Positions 27,602-53,863 of a stretch of 64,000 bases of DNA are shown in pieces. Numbering within the stretch: position 1 is the first letter of the stretch; each line of letters opens with the position of its first letter. The stretch spans positions 831,835 to 895,834 of the forward strand of contig BOKX01000001.1 in NCBI GenBank assembly GCA_016861205.1, read 5' to 3'. The DNA is from Patescibacteria group bacterium. GTDB taxonomy: Bacteria > Patescibacteriota > Microgenomatia > UBA1400 > PJMF01. The notes under the pieces were generated by a model. The model did no database searches. It worked only from the letters and a program-made list of their open reading frames with translations, and was not told the origin of the DNA. A program made the position numbers and the translations under genes.

Positions 27602-28162
27602 CTAGGTGCTTAGTTCAACAAAGTAGTAACGAAAATCTCGCCTAGCTCGAAACAGATCTGACTCAACTGCCTTGATTGTTCTCCCCAGCTCTTCTGCGAT
27701 ATCTTTCACTGACTTGTTGTCAACGTACTTCATAAGCAGAAGTTCTTGAGCATCCGCTGACAGACGAGCAAAAACTGTTTTTACCTTTTCAGCTACTTCG
27801 TGGGCATCAGAAATGTCACTCACACTCACCAACTCAGTCAGTGGCAGGGCTGCAATGGCTTTTTTGGCGTAGCGCTTGCGATAGTAGTCAGCCACTTCGT
27901 GCCGAGCGATGCCAAGCATCCAGCTCCACAAACTTGACTCCCCGCGAAAAAGGGGCAAGTGTTTCAAGCAATTCAGAAAAACTTCTTGGGCCACCTCTTC
28001 GGCATCGGCGGGGTTGGAAATTCGTTGACCCAGCCAGCCTATGAGCCGCTGGCTATACAGCTGATACCACTCTCGGACTGCCGACGATGAACCGTCACGC
28101 AGTTCAGCCAGAAGGTGCTGTTCACTCTCTGTCAGTCTCGGCTGGGTGTTGTACGATGGCAT
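27602..28162 (-). CDS. ECF-type RNA polymerase sigma-70 factor
   Basis: Region 2 VFLNCLKHLPLFRGESSLWSWMLGIARHEVADYYRKR and region 4 KSVKDIAEELGRTIKAVESDLFRAR. Transcribed divergently from the pilin-like array. Confidence 0.75.
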   Translation of the reverse strand: MPSYNTQPRLTESEQHLLAELRDGSSSAVREWYQLYSQRLIGWLGQRISNPADAEEVAQEVFLNCLKHLPLFRGESSLWSWMLGIARHEVADYYRKRYAKKAIAALPLTELVSVSDISDAHEVAEKVKTVFARLSADAQELLLMKYVDNKSVKDIAEELGRTIKAVESDLFRARRDFRYYFVELST

Positions 28163-28187
28163 AGCCTTAGGGGTATAATAGCACGCA

Positions 28188-28550
28188 ATGCTAACTCTTC
28201 TCGCCCAAGATACAACCACCACTACCGGCTGTGATCCGAGCGCCGGTGCCATCAATCTCGGGGACTGTTATGTCCTCAACCGAGAAACTGGGACCACTGT
28301 TAGTTCAGTTTACCAACAACCAGCTGATCTGGTGAATGTTCTTATTCGCAATATTTTTGTGGTGGGCGGCGTCATCTTGTTCGGCAGCTTGTTGTTTGCA
28401 GGTTTCAAGTTCATTCAATCTGGTTCTAAGGGTAAAGAAGAGGCTAAAACAATTGTTAAAACCGCTGCCATTGGCTTCATTGTCATGTTTGCCGCTTTCT
28501 GGATTGTGCGAATTATTCAAGTGATTATTGGCCAAAATCTGATCCAGTAG
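28188..28550 (+). CDS. VirB2/TrbC-like pilin family protein (paralog 1 of tandem array)
   Basis: Helix 1 NIFVVGGVILFGSLLFAGFKFIQSG, charged loop SKGKEEAKT, helix 2 AAIGFIVMFAAFWIV. Confidence 0.5.
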   Translation: MLTLLAQDTTTTTGCDPSAGAINLGDCYVLNRETGTTVSSVYQQPADLVNVLIRNIFVVGGVILFGSLLFAGFKFIQSGSKGKEEAKTIVKTAAIGFIVMFAAFWIVRIIQVIIGQNLIQ

Positions 28551-28993: not shown

Positions 28994-29401
28994 ATGTCAA
29001 ACTTCATCGCCCAAGCCGCACCTGCTAACCCATTTGGTAATGAGGGCATCGCTCCGGTCAGTCCCCGCTTTGAAGTTGACCTGAGTAGTGCTGAAGCAGC
29101 AAATGCCAGTTCTCTGAGCAATCTAGAGTTATTTATCTCACAACTAATTGGGTTTTTAACTGTCGGTGCCAGTCTCTTTTTCATCATTTACTTCATCATG
29201 GGCGCCTTCAAGTGGACCACTGCCGGTGGCGATAGTGGCAAAGTGCAAAAAGCCCGTGACCAGATGATTCAAGGCGCGATGGGCCTGATTTTGATTGTGG
29301 CTGCCTACAGCGTGATGGGTATCATCGGAACTGTCCTGGGTGTTGAAATCCTACAACCGGCCAATACGTTACGCAGTATCGTGGGACCAATCCAGAACTA
29401 A
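28994..29401 (+). CDS. VirB2/TrbC-like pilin family protein (paralog 3)
   Basis: ...IIYFIMGAFKWTTAGGDSGKVQKARDQMIQGAMGLILIVAAY. Confidence 0.55.
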   Translation: MSNFIAQAAPANPFGNEGIAPVSPRFEVDLSSAEAANASSLSNLELFISQLIGFLTVGASLFFIIYFIMGAFKWTTAGGDSGKVQKARDQMIQGAMGLILIVAAYSVMGIIGTVLGVEILQPANTLRSIVGPIQN

Positions 29402-29402
29402 T

Positions 29403-29918
29403 ATGAAAAAACTAACTCACTTCCTGACTCGTTCCAGCCTAGTTTTAGCGGTAGTGGTGGCAACATTAAGCTTTGCAACCAAAGCTCAGGCGCAGTTTAC
29501 CAACTTCGCCGAGTGTTTGGCTAATGGTTACTCAGATGTTGAGTGCCAAGATATCATGAGTCGACAGGGTGGCATCACTAATCCAGCCATCGGTCAGCTT
29601 GGTAACGACGCCGCTGGCGCCAGCGATGGCAGCCTGTTTGTTGGCTACTTCATCACTCTTTGGCGAGCCCTCATCGTAGTTGGCGGCCTAGCCGTGGTTT
29701 ACTTCTTTATTTGGGGTGCTCTGCGCTGGATTCTGGCTGGTGGTGACGCTGGCAAAGTTCAAAAAGCTCGTGACCAAATCATCCAGGCTATTATCGGTAT
29801 GATCCTGCTGGTTAGTTCGTTTGTGATTATCGGCTTCGTCAGTCAATTGGTGTTTGGTGAAAACTTTGATATTCTTAACTTGACCCTGCCTCAAGCCGGG
29901 CAAAGCACAACCAATTAA
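29403..29918 (+). CDS. VirB2/TrbC-like pilin family protein (paralog 4)
   Basis: Start at the internal Met MKKLTHFL, which gives a signal peptide. ...FFIWGALRWILAGGDAGKVQKARDQIIQAIIGMILLVSS. Confidence 0.55.
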   Translation: MKKLTHFLTRSSLVLAVVVATLSFATKAQAQFTNFAECLANGYSDVECQDIMSRQGGITNPAIGQLGNDAAGASDGSLFVGYFITLWRALIVVGGLAVVYFFIWGALRWILAGGDAGKVQKARDQIIQAIIGMILLVSSFVIIGFVSQLVFGENFDILNLTLPQAGQSTTN

Positions 29919-29919
29919 T

Positions 29920-30468
29920 ATGAAGATTGCCCAAGCCACCCTCAACTTTTATGAAGAAGCTGTTAACCAGCAACTTCCTGGCGTCACCGCTGCTGATATA
30001 GCAGCTGAGGATCGAGGTTTTGGCGCCTTGGTATCGCGGTTTTTTGGAGTGGCTTTGAGCGCAGCCAGTTTACTCCTGCTTTTCTATCTCGTTTGGGGTG
30101 CCATTGACTGGATGACCTCTGGCGGTGACAAAGGTAAAGTTGAAAAGGCCCGCAACAAGATTACCCAAGCCGTTATCGGACTGCTGGTATTATTGGCGTC
30201 AGTTGCCCTGATTACCTTGCTGCAAGGTTTCTTTAACTTTGAAGTGCTGCGGTTCAGTCAAAACACAACTCCCACAACCAATACTGTCAACTTGCCAGCT
30301 TTCTGTGATAACGATCCCTGTGCTACCGGATACACCTGTGATGAGAGTCGTGACAGATGTGTCCCGAGCTTAAATCAAACCCTACCTCAAACCTGTCGCA
30401 ACAATCCTTGTGGAACAGGCTATCGATGTGTGGAGAACCAAAACGGGTTCTCGTGTGTGCCGAATTAG
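29920..30468 (+). CDS. VirB2/TrbC-like pilin family protein with C-terminal tandem Cys-rich repeats (paralog 5)
   Basis: ...LVWGAIDWMTSGGDKGKVEKARNKITQAVIGLLVLLAS, then two modules: CDNDPCATGYTCDESRDRCVP and CRNNPCGTGYRCVENQNGFSCVPN. Confidence 0.55.
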   Translation: MKIAQATLNFYEEAVNQQLPGVTAADIAAEDRGFGALVSRFFGVALSAASLLLLFYLVWGAIDWMTSGGDKGKVEKARNKITQAVIGLLVLLASVALITLLQGFFNFEVLRFSQNTTPTTNTVNLPAFCDNDPCATGYTCDESRDRCVPSLNQTLPQTCRNNPCGTGYRCVENQNGFSCVPN

Positions 30469-30562
30469 GTAAAAAACTTGTCTAAGCACGCCAGCAGCGG
30501 GGTTTGACTTGAAGAAAACAACAAACTATAATACTATTATTGAGTAAGCAAAAGGAGCAATA

Positions 30563-30967
30563 ATGAAAAAGATTGTCCAAAAAGGTATTTCCGCTCTGGC
30601 TGGCGCCGCCGCCATTGCCCAGGCAGCTGCTGTGACTGTCAGTGCTGCAGCGATCACTGAGATTGATCCGCCCACCGCTTTCGTATCAGACATCGGTGTG
30701 TTGTTCAACAACATCTTAACTTTCGTCTTCATCATCGCCGCACTGCTGGTCTTCTTCTACCTCATCTGGGGTGGTATCGACTGGATCACTTCAGGTGGTG
30801 ACAAAGGTCAAACTGAAAAAGCTCGCAACAAAATCACCGCTGCTATCGTTGGTTTGATCGTGCTCTTGGCCTCATTCGCCATCTTGCAACTGGTGCTCCG
30901 CTTCTTCACTGGCGGCAGTGACCTGAACCAAATCTTGGATCAAAACGTTAACCAACGTTTGAACTAA
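30563..30967 (+). CDS. VirB2/TrbC-like pilin family protein (paralog 6)
   Basis: Signal peptide, ITEIDPPTAF junction, ...LIWGGIDWITSGGDKGQTEKARNKITAAIVGLIVLLAS. Confidence 0.6.
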   Translation: MKKIVQKGISALAGAAAIAQAAAVTVSAAAITEIDPPTAFVSDIGVLFNNILTFVFIIAALLVFFYLIWGGIDWITSGGDKGQTEKARNKITAAIVGLIVLLASFAILQLVLRFFTGGSDLNQILDQNVNQRLN

Positions 30968-30990
30968 GAGTTTACACTTTGAACTTGAAA

Positions 30991-31017
30991 CCCCCGCCAC
31001 TGGCGGGGGTTTTGGTT
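30991..31017 (+). terminator. Rho-independent terminator after pilin paralog 6
   Basis: CCCCCGCC-ACT-GGCGGGGG hairpin followed by a TTTTGGTTT run. Confidence 0.6.
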
Positions 31018-31045
31018 TCTCAGCACTAGGCAGTATAATATCGAC

Positions 31046-31621
31046 ATGCTCACGACACTTAAAACATCATTTGCTGTGTTACTAACTGTCCTTGGCCTGA
31101 GCTTGGCTACACCCGCTCTAGCCAGTGGTGAGTTGGTCGTCCAGCAAAATGGCGACGTGATGTATGTGACTACTGAAATTGATCCCGCCACTGGTGAGCA
31201 AGTCGTCGTCACTCGACCGGCCGATCCAGCTATTTCTGAGATTGATCCACCCACAGCCTTTGCCAGAGACATTGGTACCCTTATCAACAATGTGCTGACC
31301 TTCATTTTTATTGTCTGTTCACTGATGGTCTTTTTCTACCTGATTTGGGGCGGTTTGGACTGGATTACCTCTGGTGGTGATAAAGGCAAAACTGAGAAAG
31401 CCCGCAACAAAATGGTGGCGGCTATCGTTGGCTTAATTATCGTGTTGGCCTCGTATGCCGCGGTGAACTTAATTGTTCGCTTCTTCACTGCCAACTCACT
31501 CAACGAATTGCTGCAACAATTTTCATCAGGACCAGTTGAGGGTGAAACCCGCTTGACACCAGCAGTCACTCCTTCGCCAACTGGCTCACCCAAACCATCA
31601 CCATCAGCAACGTCTACCTAA
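31046..31621 (+). CDS. VirB2/TrbC-like pilin family protein with Pro/Ser/Thr-rich C-terminal tail (paralog 7)
   Basis: ISEIDPPTAF junction, ...LIWGGLDWITSGGDKGKTEKARNKMVAAIVGLIIVLAS. Near-identical core to paralog 6. Confidence 0.6.
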   Translation: MLTTLKTSFAVLLTVLGLSLATPALASGELVVQQNGDVMYVTTEIDPATGEQVVVTRPADPAISEIDPPTAFARDIGTLINNVLTFIFIVCSLMVFFYLIWGGLDWITSGGDKGKTEKARNKMVAAIVGLIIVLASYAAVNLIVRFFTANSLNELLQQFSSGPVEGETRLTPAVTPSPTGSPKPSPSATST

Positions 31622-48836: not shown

Positions 48837-51800
48837 ATGCCGGTTCAGCACAGTCATATGGTGGACAGCCCAACCACAACCAGCGCTCCGTCCTCAACTC
48901 GCACCAAACAGCAAGTCTGGTTGAAGCGGCTGCAGATTCCTGCCATCAAAGATGGTCAACGCGACCAGTTCCTGACTGCTCTTCAGCAAATCATTACCTC
49001 GATTACCAACACCAACTTGAGCAAGGTCACGATCGTCGACCCGTTCCGACTAACGTTCGCCGGCAGCACTCGACCGGCTCAAAGTTACAGTGTTGAGTTC
49101 AAAAACCGCCCCACCGAAGGTGACACCGATCAAGCGGTGATCTCGGCCCAAACCGAGAAAATGTACCTCGATGACGTGGCGGTGCTCTTGCTGGACGTCG
49201 CTAACTGGATTGAGGCTGCATTTCCCAAGACTCCAGCGGCCAACCGATTTGCCAAAAACGACACGCTCGATAATGTACGTGAACTAGTGACCAACTCGTT
49301 CGAAGGGATTGAGCCTGATTTTGCCAAACTCAACACCAAACGAACTGAGCTGCTGAACTTAGCTGCTGAAATCAGCGAATCTCTGGAGAGCTTGATTACT
49401 TCCGCTGGCGAAACCACCAGTGGCTATGACAGTTTGCGGCCGTTGGTTGCAGAGCTGGAGCGTGACCCTGCTCAAGCTTTAGCCTTGTGGAGCAGCGATA
49501 TCTTGGTTTTGGCGCAAGCCGTTCGGGACACCAAACAGCTCCCTACCCAAGCCGTGGTCTCGGCTCAGCCGCTCAGCACCGTCCGGGCTGTGCACGGCAA
49601 CCGTTTTAGTCCGCCAGAAGTTCGGCTGGTTTTACACACCTTTAGTAAAGCACTGCAAACAATCTTCAAAGATAGCGACGGCACCAAGAAGTACCTCAAC
49701 CGATACTTAGCCAAAGAGAACCAAAATCGCCCAATCAACGCCATTCTCGATCCTCGAGATCTCGAGTTGTTATTGAGTGAGTCATCGCCATTTTTCTTCC
49801 GACCTGAGCTCAGCGCCGCCGATCTAGCTTTGGCTAGCGAACAGGAACTGCGTGATAGCGATATTCAACAAGCCCGCGCTTTTTACACTTTCTTTACCAA
49901 AAAAGAAGTCTTTGGTCGCATCTTCGGCAAAGAAACCCTCCCCGAACTAGCTGGTGAAGCAGGGACTGAGGCAGCTGCTGAGGCTGGTGGCAGTGAGGAG
50001 ACCAAGGAGGAAAAACCGCCCGAGACCACTACCCCGACACTCATCCAGTTCTCAACTGCCCTCAATGAAGTCAACATTCGCATCACCAATGCCATTATTG
50101 ATGAGCTTAACCTCAGAGGAATTGGGTCGGCTCGTTTGGAGCGCCTCGTTTGGCAACAACTCTTCAGCGACATGCTGCAAAGACTTGAGGGACGAGCCTA
50201 CTTTGATCTCCAGTCTGCAACTCTCGATCCACAAGGCAAGGTGTATGACGCTGCTACTCGCTCGGTCGTGAGCAACCTGTTCGAAATTTGGGCTGGGCAG
50301 TACGTACCGGTGGCAGTGGCCACTTTTATGCAGCGGATTGGCCAACCTGCTACCTATCGCCAAACTATCTTGTCGTGGGCCGAGACAGAAGTTGCTGTTT
50401 TTGAGGGTAAAATGGAACTGGCTCCCGAAGCCGTCCCCGTCAACAACGCCACTGTCCTACTCGCCCTCAGCAAATTAACTCAACTGGTTCAAACGGGCGA
50501 CCGCGGTATTCTTCCTGGTCGGGCTGAAGACTTCAACAGCAGTTGGTGGTCCCAGCTGCCACTGGCTGAGCGGCGGCGGCTGACGGCACTGGTGCTTGGT
50601 CCCACCATCGGAACAGGCGCTGAAAAAGTTCGGTTAGCGAACGCCCTGGCCATCAACTACTTTGGTAGCACCGACATGGGCTTTGATGGCTTTGACCCCA
50701 CCCAACTGACTGGTGGGCTGCGCGATCAATTCGTCCCGATCCAAAACTTGTTCCTCCAAAACATTGAGACAACTTTGGCTGAGCTGAACTACGAAGACTT
50801 TGTTCGCTGTCTCAACAATCCGACCTATGCTCGGTTGTTCGTCCTCAATCGAATTCGATCGAGGTTAAATCAAGATCCAAGATTCCAAGCTTCAGTCCAA
50901 GCTTTCTTACAGGCCCGCACCCAAGAACAGCGTCAAGCTGCCGCTAAAGCTCTGGCCGGTGACGCCGCGGCTGATGGCATTTTGGCCCTGCAACTTGACC
51001 AAAGTGTTGATAGTTTATTGGTCACCTTCCAGGATGAAACGAGCGCCAAACGGTTTGTTGACAGCTTGACACCCACAGAGATAGCCCGTCACTTCGGTCG
51101 CAGCCTCAGTGAAGAACAAGCCGCCCGGTTCAAAAAAGAACTCAACAAACTACTCAGTGAGCGCTACAAAACTGAAAATGCACTGTTGAATCAGCGGCTG
51201 CGTGGTGAAGGTTTGAGTCGTCAATCTGGTAACGTCGGTCTTTTCACGTACGATGACGACACCGACGCGGATGAACGCGAACAACTCCAAGATAGTCTTG
51301 ATCGCTATCGCGAAGTCCTGCGAACAGTCAATGTCCGGACCGTTATCTCGGCTGCTCACACTCCCTACTCATATGTGGTTGGCCAAACAGAACCGACCAC
51401 CGCTAACGAGGAGGCGATTGCCGAGTGGCGATACCGGCAAGCATTTGTCCAAAATCTTTGGAAAGAGCTTGAGTTGGCTGGCCTAACTGAAGCCGCCAAA
51501 GCCGATCCCAACTTTACTCCCTCGGTTCTCATCCAAGAACTTAATTCGAATCGTAAAAAGACCCTCAGTGCCAAAACCCTTGGTGGTCGAGCCAAAAACT
51601 ACTTCCACCGGCTACGCGGTGGCAAAGAAGAGACAGTTGGAAACGCGGTCCAAAAAGCCACAACTGGCGCTGCTGAAATGGCAGCTGCCCAAGCTGCCGG
51701 CATGGCCGTAAATGCTGCTGTGCCTGGATTGGGAACGGCTTTAAACGCCGTCAGTACTGGCCTTGAGCGACTTGGCATCAAGAAGCGCTATCAAGCCCTT

Positions 51801-53207
51801 GGTGGCTTGATGATTGTGCTCAACTTTCCGTTTACCTTCTTAGGAGCTGGGTTAGGAGCTGCCATCGGTGGCTTTTTCTTTGGACCTGCCGGCGCTAGCA
51901 TTGGTGCTGGCATCGGTGGCGGCATTGGTTTCGCAGCTGATGTTGTCTACAAAACTGGTGCCGATCTCTTGGGTGGCGCCAAAACTGCCTCGGCAGCTGG
52001 TCAAGCTTCGCTTGGCGAAGCCCAGAGCGTCCTCGGCGGGACCCCAGCGGCTGCCACACCCGCAACCACCACTGGAGCTGCCGCAGCAGCCACTCGAGTT
52101 CCGTTTATCGCTACCCCAACTGCACCAGTGGTCATTGCTACTGTGGGAACGGCTGTTGTTTCGACAGTCACCATCATGGCCATCCAGAACTCATTGATCG
52201 ATCCCCTGACCATTACTCCACAAGCTACCGAGTACTCGCAGTATGTTGAAATCAGCAAAAAAGTTTTACCAGCCCAGATCGAAAACAATCAAGCCACTGA
52301 TATTACCTATACCATTGAAATTACCCCGCGAGAAGACTACGTGATTGTGCCTGGTGTTGATCAAACCACCGACACGTTTTCATACCTAGGCGGCGATGCC
52401 CTCACCCTCCCCGACCAAACAGAAGCAGTCCGCCAGCAACTCGGCAGTGATCCTATTACTGGCAAAAAAACCATTACGTATACTGTGCCCGCTGTCAGCG
52501 GCGTAGATGTTCAGGTCAACAACAAGTTCCATTTTGTGTTCCAAGTTCAAGGCATTACCGGCGACGTCCAGGTTCTCGACGTGATTGGTTCATTAACAAT
52601 TGGTGATCCGGAGATTGGGTGTTTCACCTTTGCGGAAGGTGGTCAGACTTTTGGAGGTGGTGAGTTTGCCATTCAATCCAAAGCCTGGAATGATAAAGAC
52701 CGAACCCAAGTCTTGTCAGCCTTCAACCGCCGAGCCGGCACCAACTCTAACTATATTAGTTTATTGTGTGAGAAGGGCCCCGTCGAACTGTATCGACTCC
52801 CCGGTGGTGGTGGCGGTAGTTGTAACGGGGAATGTGGTGGTTGGGCACCAGCTGCCTACGGTGGCAACAAAGTTGGTATTTATGACCCCGGCGTTCAGTA
52901 CAGTATAGATAGTACTGAATACACCCTAGTTCATGAACTCGGCCATGCTATTGATTATCGCAACGGCAACCTGCGCACCAACTTTAATACCATCTGGTCA
53001 GGTCGCTGTTATACCTATCCATTCCCCGCTGTTTGTTCTTCTGGTAGTGGCGAGGCTTTCCCCGAAGCCATGGTGCTATACGTCATCTCAAAGACATATC
53101 GCTTCTCGATCAATGACGCACCTCAGTTATTCGACTTTCAAGGTCGGTACCAAGCTGAGTATAATTGGATGCGAGACAACATTTTTGGCGGACAAGAGTT
53201 TAATTAA
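48837..53207 (+). CDS. Very large hypothetical protein (1456 aa) with C-terminal HExxH zincin-like motif, candidate effector/toxin
   Basis: No signal peptide. Internal Gly-zipper hydrophobic segment GGLMIVLNFPFTFLGAGLGAAIGGFFFGPAGASIGAGIGGGIGF. The C-terminal region has Cys pairs and TLVHELGHAIDY (HExxH). Confidence 0.55.
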   Translation: MPVQHSHMVDSPTTTSAPSSTRTKQQVWLKRLQIPAIKDGQRDQFLTALQQIITSITNTNLSKVTIVDPFRLTFAGSTRPAQSYSVEFKNRPTEGDTDQAVISAQTEKMYLDDVAVLLLDVANWIEAAFPKTPAANRFAKNDTLDNVRELVTNSFEGIEPDFAKLNTKRTELLNLAAEISESLESLITSAGETTSGYDSLRPLVAELERDPAQALALWSSDILVLAQAVRDTKQLPTQAVVSAQPLSTVRAVHGNRFSPPEVRLVLHTFSKALQTIFKDSDGTKKYLNRYLAKENQNRPINAILDPRDLELLLSESSPFFFRPELSAADLALASEQELRDSDIQQARAFYTFFTKKEVFGRIFGKETLPELAGEAGTEAAAEAGGSEETKEEKPPETTTPTLIQFSTALNEVNIRITNAIIDELNLRGIGSARLERLVWQQLFSDMLQRLEGRAYFDLQSATLDPQGKVYDAATRSVVSNLFEIWAGQYVPVAVATFMQRIGQPATYRQTILSWAETEVAVFEGKMELAPEAVPVNNATVLLALSKLTQLVQTGDRGILPGRAEDFNSSWWSQLPLAERRRLTALVLGPTIGTGAEKVRLANALAINYFGSTDMGFDGFDPTQLTGGLRDQFVPIQNLFLQNIETTLAELNYEDFVRCLNNPTYARLFVLNRIRSRLNQDPRFQASVQAFLQARTQEQRQAAAKALAGDAAADGILALQLDQSVDSLLVTFQDETSAKRFVDSLTPTEIARHFGRSLSEEQAARFKKELNKLLSERYKTENALLNQRLRGEGLSRQSGNVGLFTYDDDTDADEREQLQDSLDRYREVLRTVNVRTVISAAHTPYSYVVGQTEPTTANEEAIAEWRYRQAFVQNLWKELELAGLTEAAKADPNFTPSVLIQELNSNRKKTLSAKTLGGRAKNYFHRLRGGKEETVGNAVQKATTGAAEMAAAQAAGMAVNAAVPGLGTALNAVSTGLERLGIKKRYQALGGLMIVLNFPFTFLGAGLGAAIGGFFFGPAGASIGAGIGGGIGFAADVVYKTGADLLGGAKTASAAGQASLGEAQSVLGGTPAAATPATTTGAAAAATRVPFIATPTAPVVIATVGTAVVSTVTIMAIQNSLIDPLTITPQATEYSQYVEISKKVLPAQIENNQATDITYTIEITPREDYVIVPGVDQTTDTFSYLGGDALTLPDQTEAVRQQLGSDPITGKKTITYTVPAVSGVDVQVNNKFHFVFQVQGITGDVQVLDVIGSLTIGDPEIGCFTFAEGGQTFGGGEFAIQSKAWNDKDRTQVLSAFNRRAGTNSNYISLLCEKGPVELYRLPGGGGGSCNGECGGWAPAAYGGNKVGIYDPGVQYSIDSTEYTLVHELGHAIDYRNGNLRTNFNTIWSGRCYTYPFPAVCSSGSGEAFPEAMVLYVISKTYRFSINDAPQLFDFQGRYQAEYNWMRDNIFGGQEFN

Positions 53208-53230: not shown

Positions 53231-53863
53231 ATGGCGTTCAGTTCAACTCAACCCAATCCCAACACTCCGCTCCAGCCGATCCCGTGGTGGAGAGAGTATT
53301 GGTGGATACTCGGCTTGATTGGTGTTGCTGTTCTCCTCGTACTGGCATTTCTCATCCAATTATTTGTAGCTGCTCGTTACCCCGTTAACCAAGAGAACAC
53401 CTGGAATGCCATCACTCCCGGTTACACAACTTTGTTTCAGGTTGAGAGTCGCCTGGGACAACCCATCAGTAAAACTAGAACGGCAGAAGGTACAAAAGTT
53501 ACCTATACTTCCCCCTTTAAAGCAATTCCGCATGAAGTCATCGCCGATCAACAAAATAAAGTCGTGTTTATCCGTGAACTGTTACCCGCTGATAGCACTC
53601 TCACTCTCGAAGAAGTTAAGGCAGAGTTCGGTGAACCAGATATGTCTTTGTTCCACACCACTATCGCCATCGGGCAACAAGCTCATGTTTTCTTGGCAAA
53701 AGGAGTTGTAGCCGTGGCAAATTTGAGTGATGGCCGAATTGAAGAAAAGTGGTACTTTGAACCCACCACCGCTGACGCATTTATGAATTCGTGGGGTAAA
53801 GACCTCAGTGAAGATGGGGCTGGCCCTGAAGAGTTTCCTGCTCCGCCTGAAGCCCAGCTCTAG
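53231..53863 (+). CDS. Hypothetical membrane-anchored protein
   Basis: N-terminal TM helix WWILGLIGVAVLLVLAFLIQLFV, then a soluble domain. Confidence 0.45.
   Translation: MAFSSTQPNPNTPLQPIPWWREYWWILGLIGVAVLLVLAFLIQLFVAARYPVNQENTWNAITPGYTTLFQVESRLGQPISKTRTAEGTKVTYTSPFKAIPHEVIADQQNKVVFIRELLPADSTLTLEEVKAEFGEPDMSLFHTTIAIGQQAHVFLAKGVVAVANLSDGRIEEKWYFEPTTADAFMNSWGKDLSEDGAGPEEFPAPPEAQL

Follow-up and report, generated by a model that had tools for sequence, protein, structure and literature searches.

The stretch of DNA analysed here, referred to below as the window, comprises 64,000 nucleotides (nt) of contig BOKX01000001.1 from a Patescibacteria group bacterium, and the subject of this study is a giant gene within it, which encodes a protein of 1456 amino acids (aa) and is the first gene of an operon for a type IV secretion system (T4SS). 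The open reading frame (ORF) had been reported in a preliminary description drawn from the sequence alone; its coordinates agree with the ORF list and the translation, and the strings quoted in that description are present. The gene is followed by genes for a small membrane protein, a PrgI-like protein, a TrsD-like protein and the VirB4 ATPase, and then, where the contig reaches, by dnaA and dnaN (Table 1), in keeping with the proximity to T4SS core genes remarked upon earlier. The giant gene is the first of this conserved operon in all 14 loci examined. As the gene order agrees with that of the published cluster beside dnaA (PMC12102498; PMC10633639), the operon is, by its gene content, a Patescibacteria-type T4SS, related to MPF-FATA, next to oriC. 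Such systems have been described as Gram-positive-like relatives of MPF-FATA with TrsD, PrgI and VirB2-like pilins, usually without a relaxase and often located beside dnaA (PMC12102498).

Just ahead of the giant gene the opposite strand carries a gene for tRNA-Arg(CCG) (48621-48689), and a TATAAT box (48809-48814) stands 22 nt ahead of the annotated ATG. These two features, and the fact that the genes further upstream differ between loci, make the giant gene appear to open the operon. Since the start Met of 35 homologues aligns with M8 of the window protein, the real start codon may be at 48858 (M8).

From the N-terminus, the protein consists of a long hydrophilic region, a Gly-zipper hydrophobic stretch, a low-complexity linker, a last transmembrane (TM) helix, a beta-sandwich stalk and a metallopeptidase domain, hereafter the head. 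Hydropathy analysis found no hydrophobic segment over the first ~980 aa and therefore no signal peptide, as had been noted, and the N-terminal ~985-aa region is predicted to be cytoplasmic. The Gly-zipper seen earlier, with the string GAGLGAAIGGFFFGPAGASIGAGIGGGIGF inside aa 986-1037 (nt 51792-51947), was found again, but not as the only hydrophobic segment: this stretch of ~52 residues is probably a two-helix membrane hairpin, and a TM helix at aa 1088-1118 follows it with a stronger hydropathy signal. Of 127 long homologues, 91 have a strict GxxxGxxxG pattern upstream of the beta-sandwich, compared with 2 occurrences among 73 N-terminal control segments of 330 aa; the pattern is also present in the consensus of the homologue alignment A3.

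Lys and Arg residues flank the cytoplasmic sides of the TM segments, an Arg precedes the last helix and neutral or acidic residues follow it, a pattern that fits the positive-inside rule. One homologue, P0005, is reduced to a signal anchor (the last TM helix alone at its start), the sandwich and the head. Given the positive-inside pattern, the two conserved Cys pairs of the head and the architecture of P0005, the most economical topology would have the N-terminus inside and the C-terminal ~340 aa, including the head, outside.

Table 1. Position of the giant gene, its parts and the neighbouring genes in the window.
Feature	Position (nt)	Strand	Basis or remark
Giant T4SS-operon gene	48837..53207	+	ORF list and translation; 1456 aa, ATG to stop
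N-terminal region, ~985 aa	48837..51791	+	Hydrophilic, fast-evolving; without TM segment, Pfam or PDB match
Gly-zipper hydrophobic stretch, aa 986-1037	51792..51947	+	Hydropathy; three GxxxGxxxG motifs
Ala/Thr/Gly/Pro-rich low-complexity linker, aa 1038-1087	51948..52097	+	Read from sequence
Last TM helix, aa 1088-1118	52098..52190	+	Top hydropathy peak, 2.21
Beta-sandwich (Ig/DUF11-like) stalk domain, aa 1120-1254	52194..52598	+	Predicted structure all-beta, block pLDDT 74-93
Junction motif IGDPEIGCF	52599..52625	+	Putative point of head exchange
Predicted C-terminal M34-like gluzincin domain, aa 1255-1456	52599..53204	+	Predicted structure, PDB neighbours, profile search
HELGH, aa 1366-1370	52932..52946	+	Predicted zinc ligands H1366 and H1370; predicted general base E1367
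Y1394 ... E1406-A-F-P-E1410	53016..53066	+	Candidate catalytic Tyr and third zinc ligand (Glu helix)
210-aa bitopic membrane protein ('small' family)	53231..53863	+	One N-terminal TM helix
PrgI/VirB3-like protein, 380 aa	53912..55054	+	PF12666, 9e-08; C-terminal CarboxypepD_reg-like, PF13620, 1e-05
TrsD/TraC-N-like (VirB4 N-terminal-like) protein, 425 aa	55130..56407	+	NCBIfam TrsD, VirB4_plasma
VirB4 ATPase, CD1110 type, 688 aa	56452..58518	+	NCBIfam NF045971, 6e-116 (above cut-off); Pfam TraG P-loop
dnaA	58557-60263
dnaN	60516-61643
yidC; Jag/KhpB-like (KH + R3H) gene	62390-63148; 63155-63625	+	Downstream of dnaN; typical origin-proximal content
659-aa hydrophilic protein	46491-48470	+	Weak homologues in loci L005 and L010 only
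Three hydrophilic ORFs, 1369, 394 and 396 aa	39605-43714; 43718-44902; 44962-46152	-	Without TM or Pfam match
564-aa protein, about 8 TM helices	36920-38614	+	Without Pfam match; homologues near the cluster in L005 and L010
VirB2-like pilin array, at least three genes	29340-29918; 29920-30468; 31046-31621	+	PF18895
ECF (extracytoplasmic function)-type sigma factor	27602-28255	-	Upstream of the pilin array

The C-terminal metallopeptidase domain

The HExxH motif reported near the C-terminus is the HELGH sequence carried by TLVHELGHAIDYRNGNL (aa 1366-1370; nt 52932-52946). In an alignment of 42 diverse catalytic domains with a mean column identity of about 31%, its H1366, E1367 and H1370 are invariant, together with Y1394, E1406, C1262 and C1311, and F1408 and E1410 are nearly so. 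A wider survey of 153 sequences, comprising the 150 profile-search matches listed and those identified earlier, found HExxH retained within the last 160 aa of 143. Among the matches listed, one protein of 1211 aa (P0131) keeps the rest of the domain, including DDFAE, and is probably a pseudo-enzyme because it has lost the HExxH. The conserved Cys pairs of the head are C1391/C1400 and C1262/C1311; as regards the pairs that had been described as flanking the motif, C1391/C1400 is conserved, whereas the CNGEC cysteines fall within a non-conserved insert.

The structure of the last 366 aa predicted by AlphaFold2 (AF2), with a local confidence score (pLDDT) of 72, consists of the beta-sandwich followed by an alpha/beta domain, and a Foldseek search with this two-domain model was dominated by arrestin-like and Ig-like sandwiches. 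Modelling of the head alone from the 42-sequence alignment gave a pLDDT of 93.3 and a predicted template modelling score (pTM) of 0.91. In this model HELGH (domain positions 115-119) lies inside the helix 106-124, and E1406 stands one residue ahead of a further helix down the chain, 156-166. The top neighbour of the head in the PDB was the Pro-Pro endopeptidase PPEP-2 (6fpc; Foldseek E-value 0.01, probability 1.0, structural alignment scores (TM-scores) 0.53/0.58), followed by PPEP-1, PPEP-3, the Bacteroides zinc peptidase 4l7a and anthrax lethal factor (LF). The three PPEPs align with the head at TM-scores of about 0.53-0.58 and Foldseek probabilities of up to 1.0, with 12-18% sequence identity. 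A profile search of PDB sequences retrieved CapP at an E-value of 3e-4 and LF at 0.002-0.03, and in the profile alignment HExxH, Y1394 and the ExFAE segment pair with HEFGH, Y728 and E735-FFAE739 of LF, residues which we take to include the catalytic Tyr and a zinc ligand of that enzyme.

Based on the AF2 fold, the PDB neighbours and the profile alignment with LF, the head is apparently a distant and active M34-like gluzincin, in which zinc would be bound by H1366, H1370 and E1406. The features expected of gluzincins, a helical HExxH and a Glu carried by a subsequent helix, and the HExxH/Tyr/ExxAE signature of M34 are all found in the model or the alignment. The earlier suggestion of a zincin-type C-terminal domain is therefore upheld by the model, which has the zincin-like helix arrangement and, as its best neighbours, gluzincins instead of a non-catalytic fold. 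The head shares with PPEP-1/2/3 and LF (MEROPS M34) the order HExxH ... Tyr ... ExxAE and, judging from the model, probably the alpha/beta gluzincin fold; unlike them, it has two conserved disulfide-type Cys pairs and is fused to a T4SS membrane scaffold.

The head matched the Pfam families ATLF, M57, M78 and M91 only under their thresholds. For ATLF (PF07737), the window protein scored 11.6-15.4 bits against a gathering cut-off of 27.4, and 7 of the 42 family members produced a match (best E-value 7e-6), so that by the curated cut-off the head is not a member of this family. In BFVD, a structure search yielded only weak zincin matches (labelled 'lethal factor' and 'minor capsid component'), and neither a lysin nor a tape-measure protein related to the head. 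Stand-alone proteins of ~198 aa in Flavobacteriaceae (L008, 9683-10279, and L009) are 33-34% identical to the catalytic-domain core, which places distant relatives of the head beyond both Patescibacteria and T4SS loci.

Exchange of the head and of the downstream gene

An exhaustive profile search identified 596 cluster representatives with E-values of 1e-3 or lower, 93 of them at 1e-30 or lower, and most members of this family are 800-1600 aa long and end in the domain. A word-index search returned four relatives with the last 366 aa, and nothing besides the query itself with the full-length protein. The N-terminal regions evolve fast: BLAST ties the window protein to three others only, at ~24% identity, and between the loci with HExxH heads VirB4 is 73-83% identical and the head 30-42%, while the N-terminus is not alignable by BLAST. 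At the profile level, comparison of the cluster that includes the window protein (c1) with a second cluster (c2) by hhalign gave a probability of 99% and an E-value of 8e-18 over 536 columns, and the N-terminal regions can on this evidence be regarded as one collinear family. It is at this level only that the N-terminus of the window protein is homologous to those of relatives with HExxH and with M23 heads; a direct match between an M23-type and an HExxH-type N-terminus (P0134 and P0030) has 25% identity over 418 aa, with an E-value of 9e-19. Pfam and PDB searches with the N-terminal region found no matching family, and no Pfam domain, including toxin-trafficking and pre-toxin domains such as Rhs, LXG and PT-HINT, recurred among 35 full-length members. 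Matches of the full protein to the PDB entries of TraT and threonine synthase were rejected as compositional, being due to Gly/Ala-rich segments.

Among the matches listed, the profile aligns with seven homologues solely along the last TM helix and the beta-sandwich, after which these proteins end in a Peptidase_M23 domain; one protein of 1587 aa (P0071) bears an HExxH head and, after it, an additional phosphodiester glycosidase domain (NAGPA). A junction of the form (V/I)G-x-P-x-(I/V/L/M)-G-C-(F/W) directly precedes the HExxH or M23 domain in all but one of the 16 proteins inspected; in P0071 the junction is degenerate and the beta-sandwich absent. The N-terminal region, the Gly-zipper, the last TM helix and the beta-sandwich are common to the HExxH-type and M23-type homologues, and the head is thus, as far as domain architecture tells, an exchangeable module on a homologous scaffold.

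The gene downstream changes with the head. The HExxH-type loci (the window, L001-L007, L013 and L014) carry immediately 3' of the giant gene a homologue of the 'small' protein (~190-212 aa) in 10 cases out of 10, and in all four M23-type loci (L010, L011, L012 and L015) it is replaced by a bitopic protein of ~323-330 aa from a different family, termed 'big'. The stop and start codons of the giant and 'small' genes abut or overlap in several loci. The two families share no similarity beyond the TM helix, either by hmmsearch or by hhalign (probability 3%); PDB and Pfam searches with both gave nothing above noise, the 'small' protein having weak DUF4309 and BamE-like matches only. The PrgI tree is star-like and poorly resolved, and it pairs an M23-type with an HExxH-type locus twice (L011 with L013, L010 with L014); in view of these mixed pairings the two types do not form two deep clades. 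These data show that head type and downstream gene family change in concert, for which there are two candidate explanations. The downstream protein may be a partner specific to the head, perhaps one that inhibits it or confers immunity; alternatively, it may have a VirB8-like scaffold role, its gene lying in the same recombination block. The small immunity-like gene that was to be sought downstream thus has a candidate in the co-varying 210-aa membrane protein, but the VirB8-like alternative accounts for it equally well.

In the related loci the PrgI-like protein always has the architecture with a C-terminal CarboxypepD_reg-like beta-sandwich. In the window the VirB4 function is split over two genes, a TrsD/TraC-N-like gene for 425 aa and then the VirB4 ATPase gene for 688 aa. 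The pilin array (29340..31621), part of the same T4SS region and located some 17 kb ahead of the giant gene, resembles the essential pilin array of the T4SS cluster of 'Candidatus Southlakia epibionticum' (PMC10633639). The 564-aa multi-TM protein is a possible VirB6-like channel subunit. The three hydrophilic ORFs between 39605 and 46152 are all transcribed divergently from the T4SS operon, and those of 394 and 396 aa are rich in low-complexity sequence. The related loci carry labels such as Candidatus Paceibacterota, Pacebacteria and HK-STAS-PATE-16; the records of three metagenome-assembled genomes (L002, L003 and L005) are labelled 'Pseudomonadales bacterium' despite a Patescibacteria-type T4SS/dnaA locus, which looks like a taxonomic mislabel. 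In two cases the giant gene appears as two ORFs, of 1018 and 491 aa on the contig of P0004 and of 843 and 732 aa in L016 (82-4766). The L016 split was rejected as biological, as a scaffold gap of N's causes it; the one on the P0004 contig could be genuine or a frameshift.

Comparison with known systems and possible roles

The T4SS cluster itself, and the presence within it of an essential 'peptidase' gene, are already known. In 'Ca. Southlakia epibionticum' ML1, the T4SS cluster SEML1_0004-0019 includes SEML1_0007, an essential 'hypothetical' protein of 1114 aa required for epibiotic growth; a Hedgehog/DD-peptidase (M15) fold covers its residues 951-1105, and the closest predicted structures are annotated as M15B and M23 (PMC10633639, Tables S1/S2). 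A survey of Patescibacteria T4SSs called it a peptidase homologue that may replace VirB1 (PMC12102498). Like the window protein, it is a giant protein with a C-terminal metallopeptidase head encoded beside VirB4, TrsD and PrgI near dnaA, and it appears to be its counterpart. The two differ in that the window head is of the HExxH type and that of SEML1_0007 has the M15 fold, and also in their surroundings: the SEML1_0007 gene is located 3' of virB4, next to a gene for a lysozyme-like protein, and the window gene 5' of the PrgI gene, with no lysozyme found. Scanning of the cluster ORFs recognised no VirB1-like lysozyme; the 659-aa protein encoded upstream was tried as a counterpart of the lysozyme-like SEML1_0006 and rejected, being hydrophilic, without TM segment or PDB/Pfam match and not consistently upstream in other loci. 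The HExxH head and the switching of head and partner gene were not found described in the searchable literature.

The VirB1-like cell-wall hydrolases that Gram-positive conjugative T4SSs encode (PrgK of pCF10, TraG of pIP501, CwlT of ICEBs1 and TcpG of pCW3) offer a second comparison: like them, the window protein is T4SS-encoded and predicted to be membrane-anchored with an extracytoplasmic hydrolytic head. A LytM/M23-type module also occurs in PrgK, which parallels the M23 heads borne by relatives of the window protein. Neither for the window protein nor for 35 homologues did Pfam and NCBIfam searches detect a lytic transglycosylase/muramidase, CHAP or NlpC/P60 domain, and because these defining domains are absent the protein does not belong to the VirB1-like family. 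It differs from that family also in its Gly-zipper, its ~980-aa N-terminal region and its zincin head, a fold not described for VirB1-like proteins.

The interpretation that we lean towards, with somewhat better than even confidence, is that the giant protein serves the T4SS as a membrane-anchored tool for cutting the cell envelope, its extracellular zinc peptidase head being exchangeable. The ~980-aa fast-evolving N-terminal region would lie on the cytoplasmic side, the Gly-zipper hairpin and the further TM helix would anchor the protein, and the beta-sandwich stalk would carry the head outside, where it would cut the envelope locally, either the cell's own wall or the wall or surface layer of a host cell, or both. 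Through such a local opening of the wall the channel and the pilus of the T4SS could form and gain access to the partner cell, and the protein would be, by analogy, a functional counterpart of VirB1, PrgK and CwlT. An envelope-cutting job is suggested because relatives with the same scaffold bear M23 heads, P0071 adds a NAGPA domain, the apparent counterpart in S. epibionticum has an M15-fold head, and the cluster ORFs scanned gave no VirB1-like lysozyme; a role in peptidoglycan hydrolysis would follow from the same analogy with the M23 heads and with the M15-fold head of the essential SEML1_0007. The substrate may be a wall peptide or a surface protein.

Several observations weigh against this interpretation. 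All matches to known peptidase families are under the curated thresholds and the Foldseek E-values are ~0.01; the replacement by M23 indicates an equivalent position, not the same substrate; the topology is predicted from hydropathy alone; and VirB1-like hydrolases offer no parallel to an N-terminal region of ~980 aa. We know of no zincin of this fold that cleaves peptidoglycan, and the nearest relatives of solved structure, the PPEPs and LF, cleave proteins.

The last point is the core of one alternative, which we consider rather doubtful: that the head acts as a surface protease of PPEP type on VirB2-like pilins, adhesins or a proteinaceous surface layer of the host instead of peptidoglycan. 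The closest solved structures, all protein-cleaving, speak for it, as do the pilin array in the same T4SS region and the adjacent gene for a co-varying protein predicted to be exposed at the surface. PPEP substrates are often encoded beside the protease gene, and PPEP-1 of C. difficile switches between attachment and release through adhesins. However, the positional equivalents in relatives are cell-wall peptidases (M23 and apparently M15), and the NAGPA domain of P0071, being a phosphodiester glycosidase, points to wall polymers; since the similarity to PPEPs is distant (12-18% identity, TM-score about 0.55), their substrate specificity is not transferable. A further alternative, in which the protein acts as a non-catalytic T4SS scaffold and its HExxH module survives as a structural remnant, is highly improbable. 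The loss of HExxH from the otherwise intact domain of P0131 and the sub-threshold family matches could be read in that way, but five residues of catalytic type are invariant over 42 domains whose mean column identity is only about 31%, and HExxH persists in 143 of the 153 sequences checked.

The preliminary description had likened the protein to polymorphic toxins or effectors, and part of that likeness stands. As in CdiA, Rhs and LXG proteins, a variable C-terminal enzyme follows a conserved junction and a downstream gene co-varies with it, the alternatives here being HExxH, M23 and HExxH plus NAGPA. The protein, or a released C-terminal part, might accordingly be delivered by the T4SS to a host or competitor and damage its envelope, with the downstream membrane protein conferring immunity; although less probable, this is the strongest of the alternatives. 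The exchange of heads, the strict association of 'small' and 'big' proteins with head type (10/10 and 4/4 loci), the interleaving of locus types in the poorly resolved PrgI tree, the abutting or overlapping genes and the weak BamE/DUF4309-like matches of the 'small' protein are all in its favour, and the absence of a signal peptide is expected of a substrate of a dedicated secretion system. What does not fit is that the gene is single-copy in the window and always the first of a core operon, that no orphan cassettes were seen, that the Pfam scan found no known toxin-trafficking or pre-toxin domain, and that the heads are envelope enzymes only, not the wide repertoire typical of polymorphic systems. 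In addition, the three hydrophobic segments favour a resident membrane protein, and the downstream protein, from a family that like its alternative has no PDB or Pfam match, occupies the position of the VirB8-like scaffold in Gram-positive T4SS operons and may merely hitch-hike in a recombination block. A T4SS-integral envelope hydrolase therefore fits better than a classical toxin. The order of parts also recalls phage tape measures with a muralytic C-terminus such as pb2 of T5, in which a long hydrophilic region precedes ~46-52 hydrophobic residues, possibly two TM helices, and a metallopeptidase (PMC10038345), and the window protein has the same order by analogy, not membership. A match to the tape-measure family PHROG_167 (aa 907-1051, E-value 1.8e-5, 23.6 bits) was discounted as a sign of membership, since it is confined to the Gly/Ala-rich hydrophobic part, where it is probably compositional, and the neighbours are T4SS and replication genes with no tail genes. 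This analogy inspires a speculative and still less probable view than that of a PPEP-like protease, namely a penetration device deployed by the T4SS, in which the N-terminal region would travel through or line the channel, the Gly-zipper helices would, by oligomerising, form a pore in the host membrane, the head would cut the wall or surface layer of the host, its type (zincin, M23 or M15) being chosen by host envelope chemistry, and the downstream protein would shield the producer. The envelope-cutting T4SS module favoured here and these alternatives are not fully exclusive.

The T4SS of Patescibacteria lacks a relaxase and a linked coupling protein; in the single species put to the test, epibiotic growth depended on it as essential (PMC10633639, PMC12102498). 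This study defines the conserved and hitherto unannotated first gene of the core operon as one coding for a giant scaffold with an apparently exchangeable head and a co-varying partner gene, and adds a predicted M34-like zincin to the enzymes associated with T4SS machines. A penetration device, if true, would represent the long-sought route through which ultrasmall epibionts make a passage into their hosts. The gene offers a handle on how ultrasmall bacteria breach the cell envelope, and the type of its head, read from a genome, could help to predict what kind of envelope the host has.

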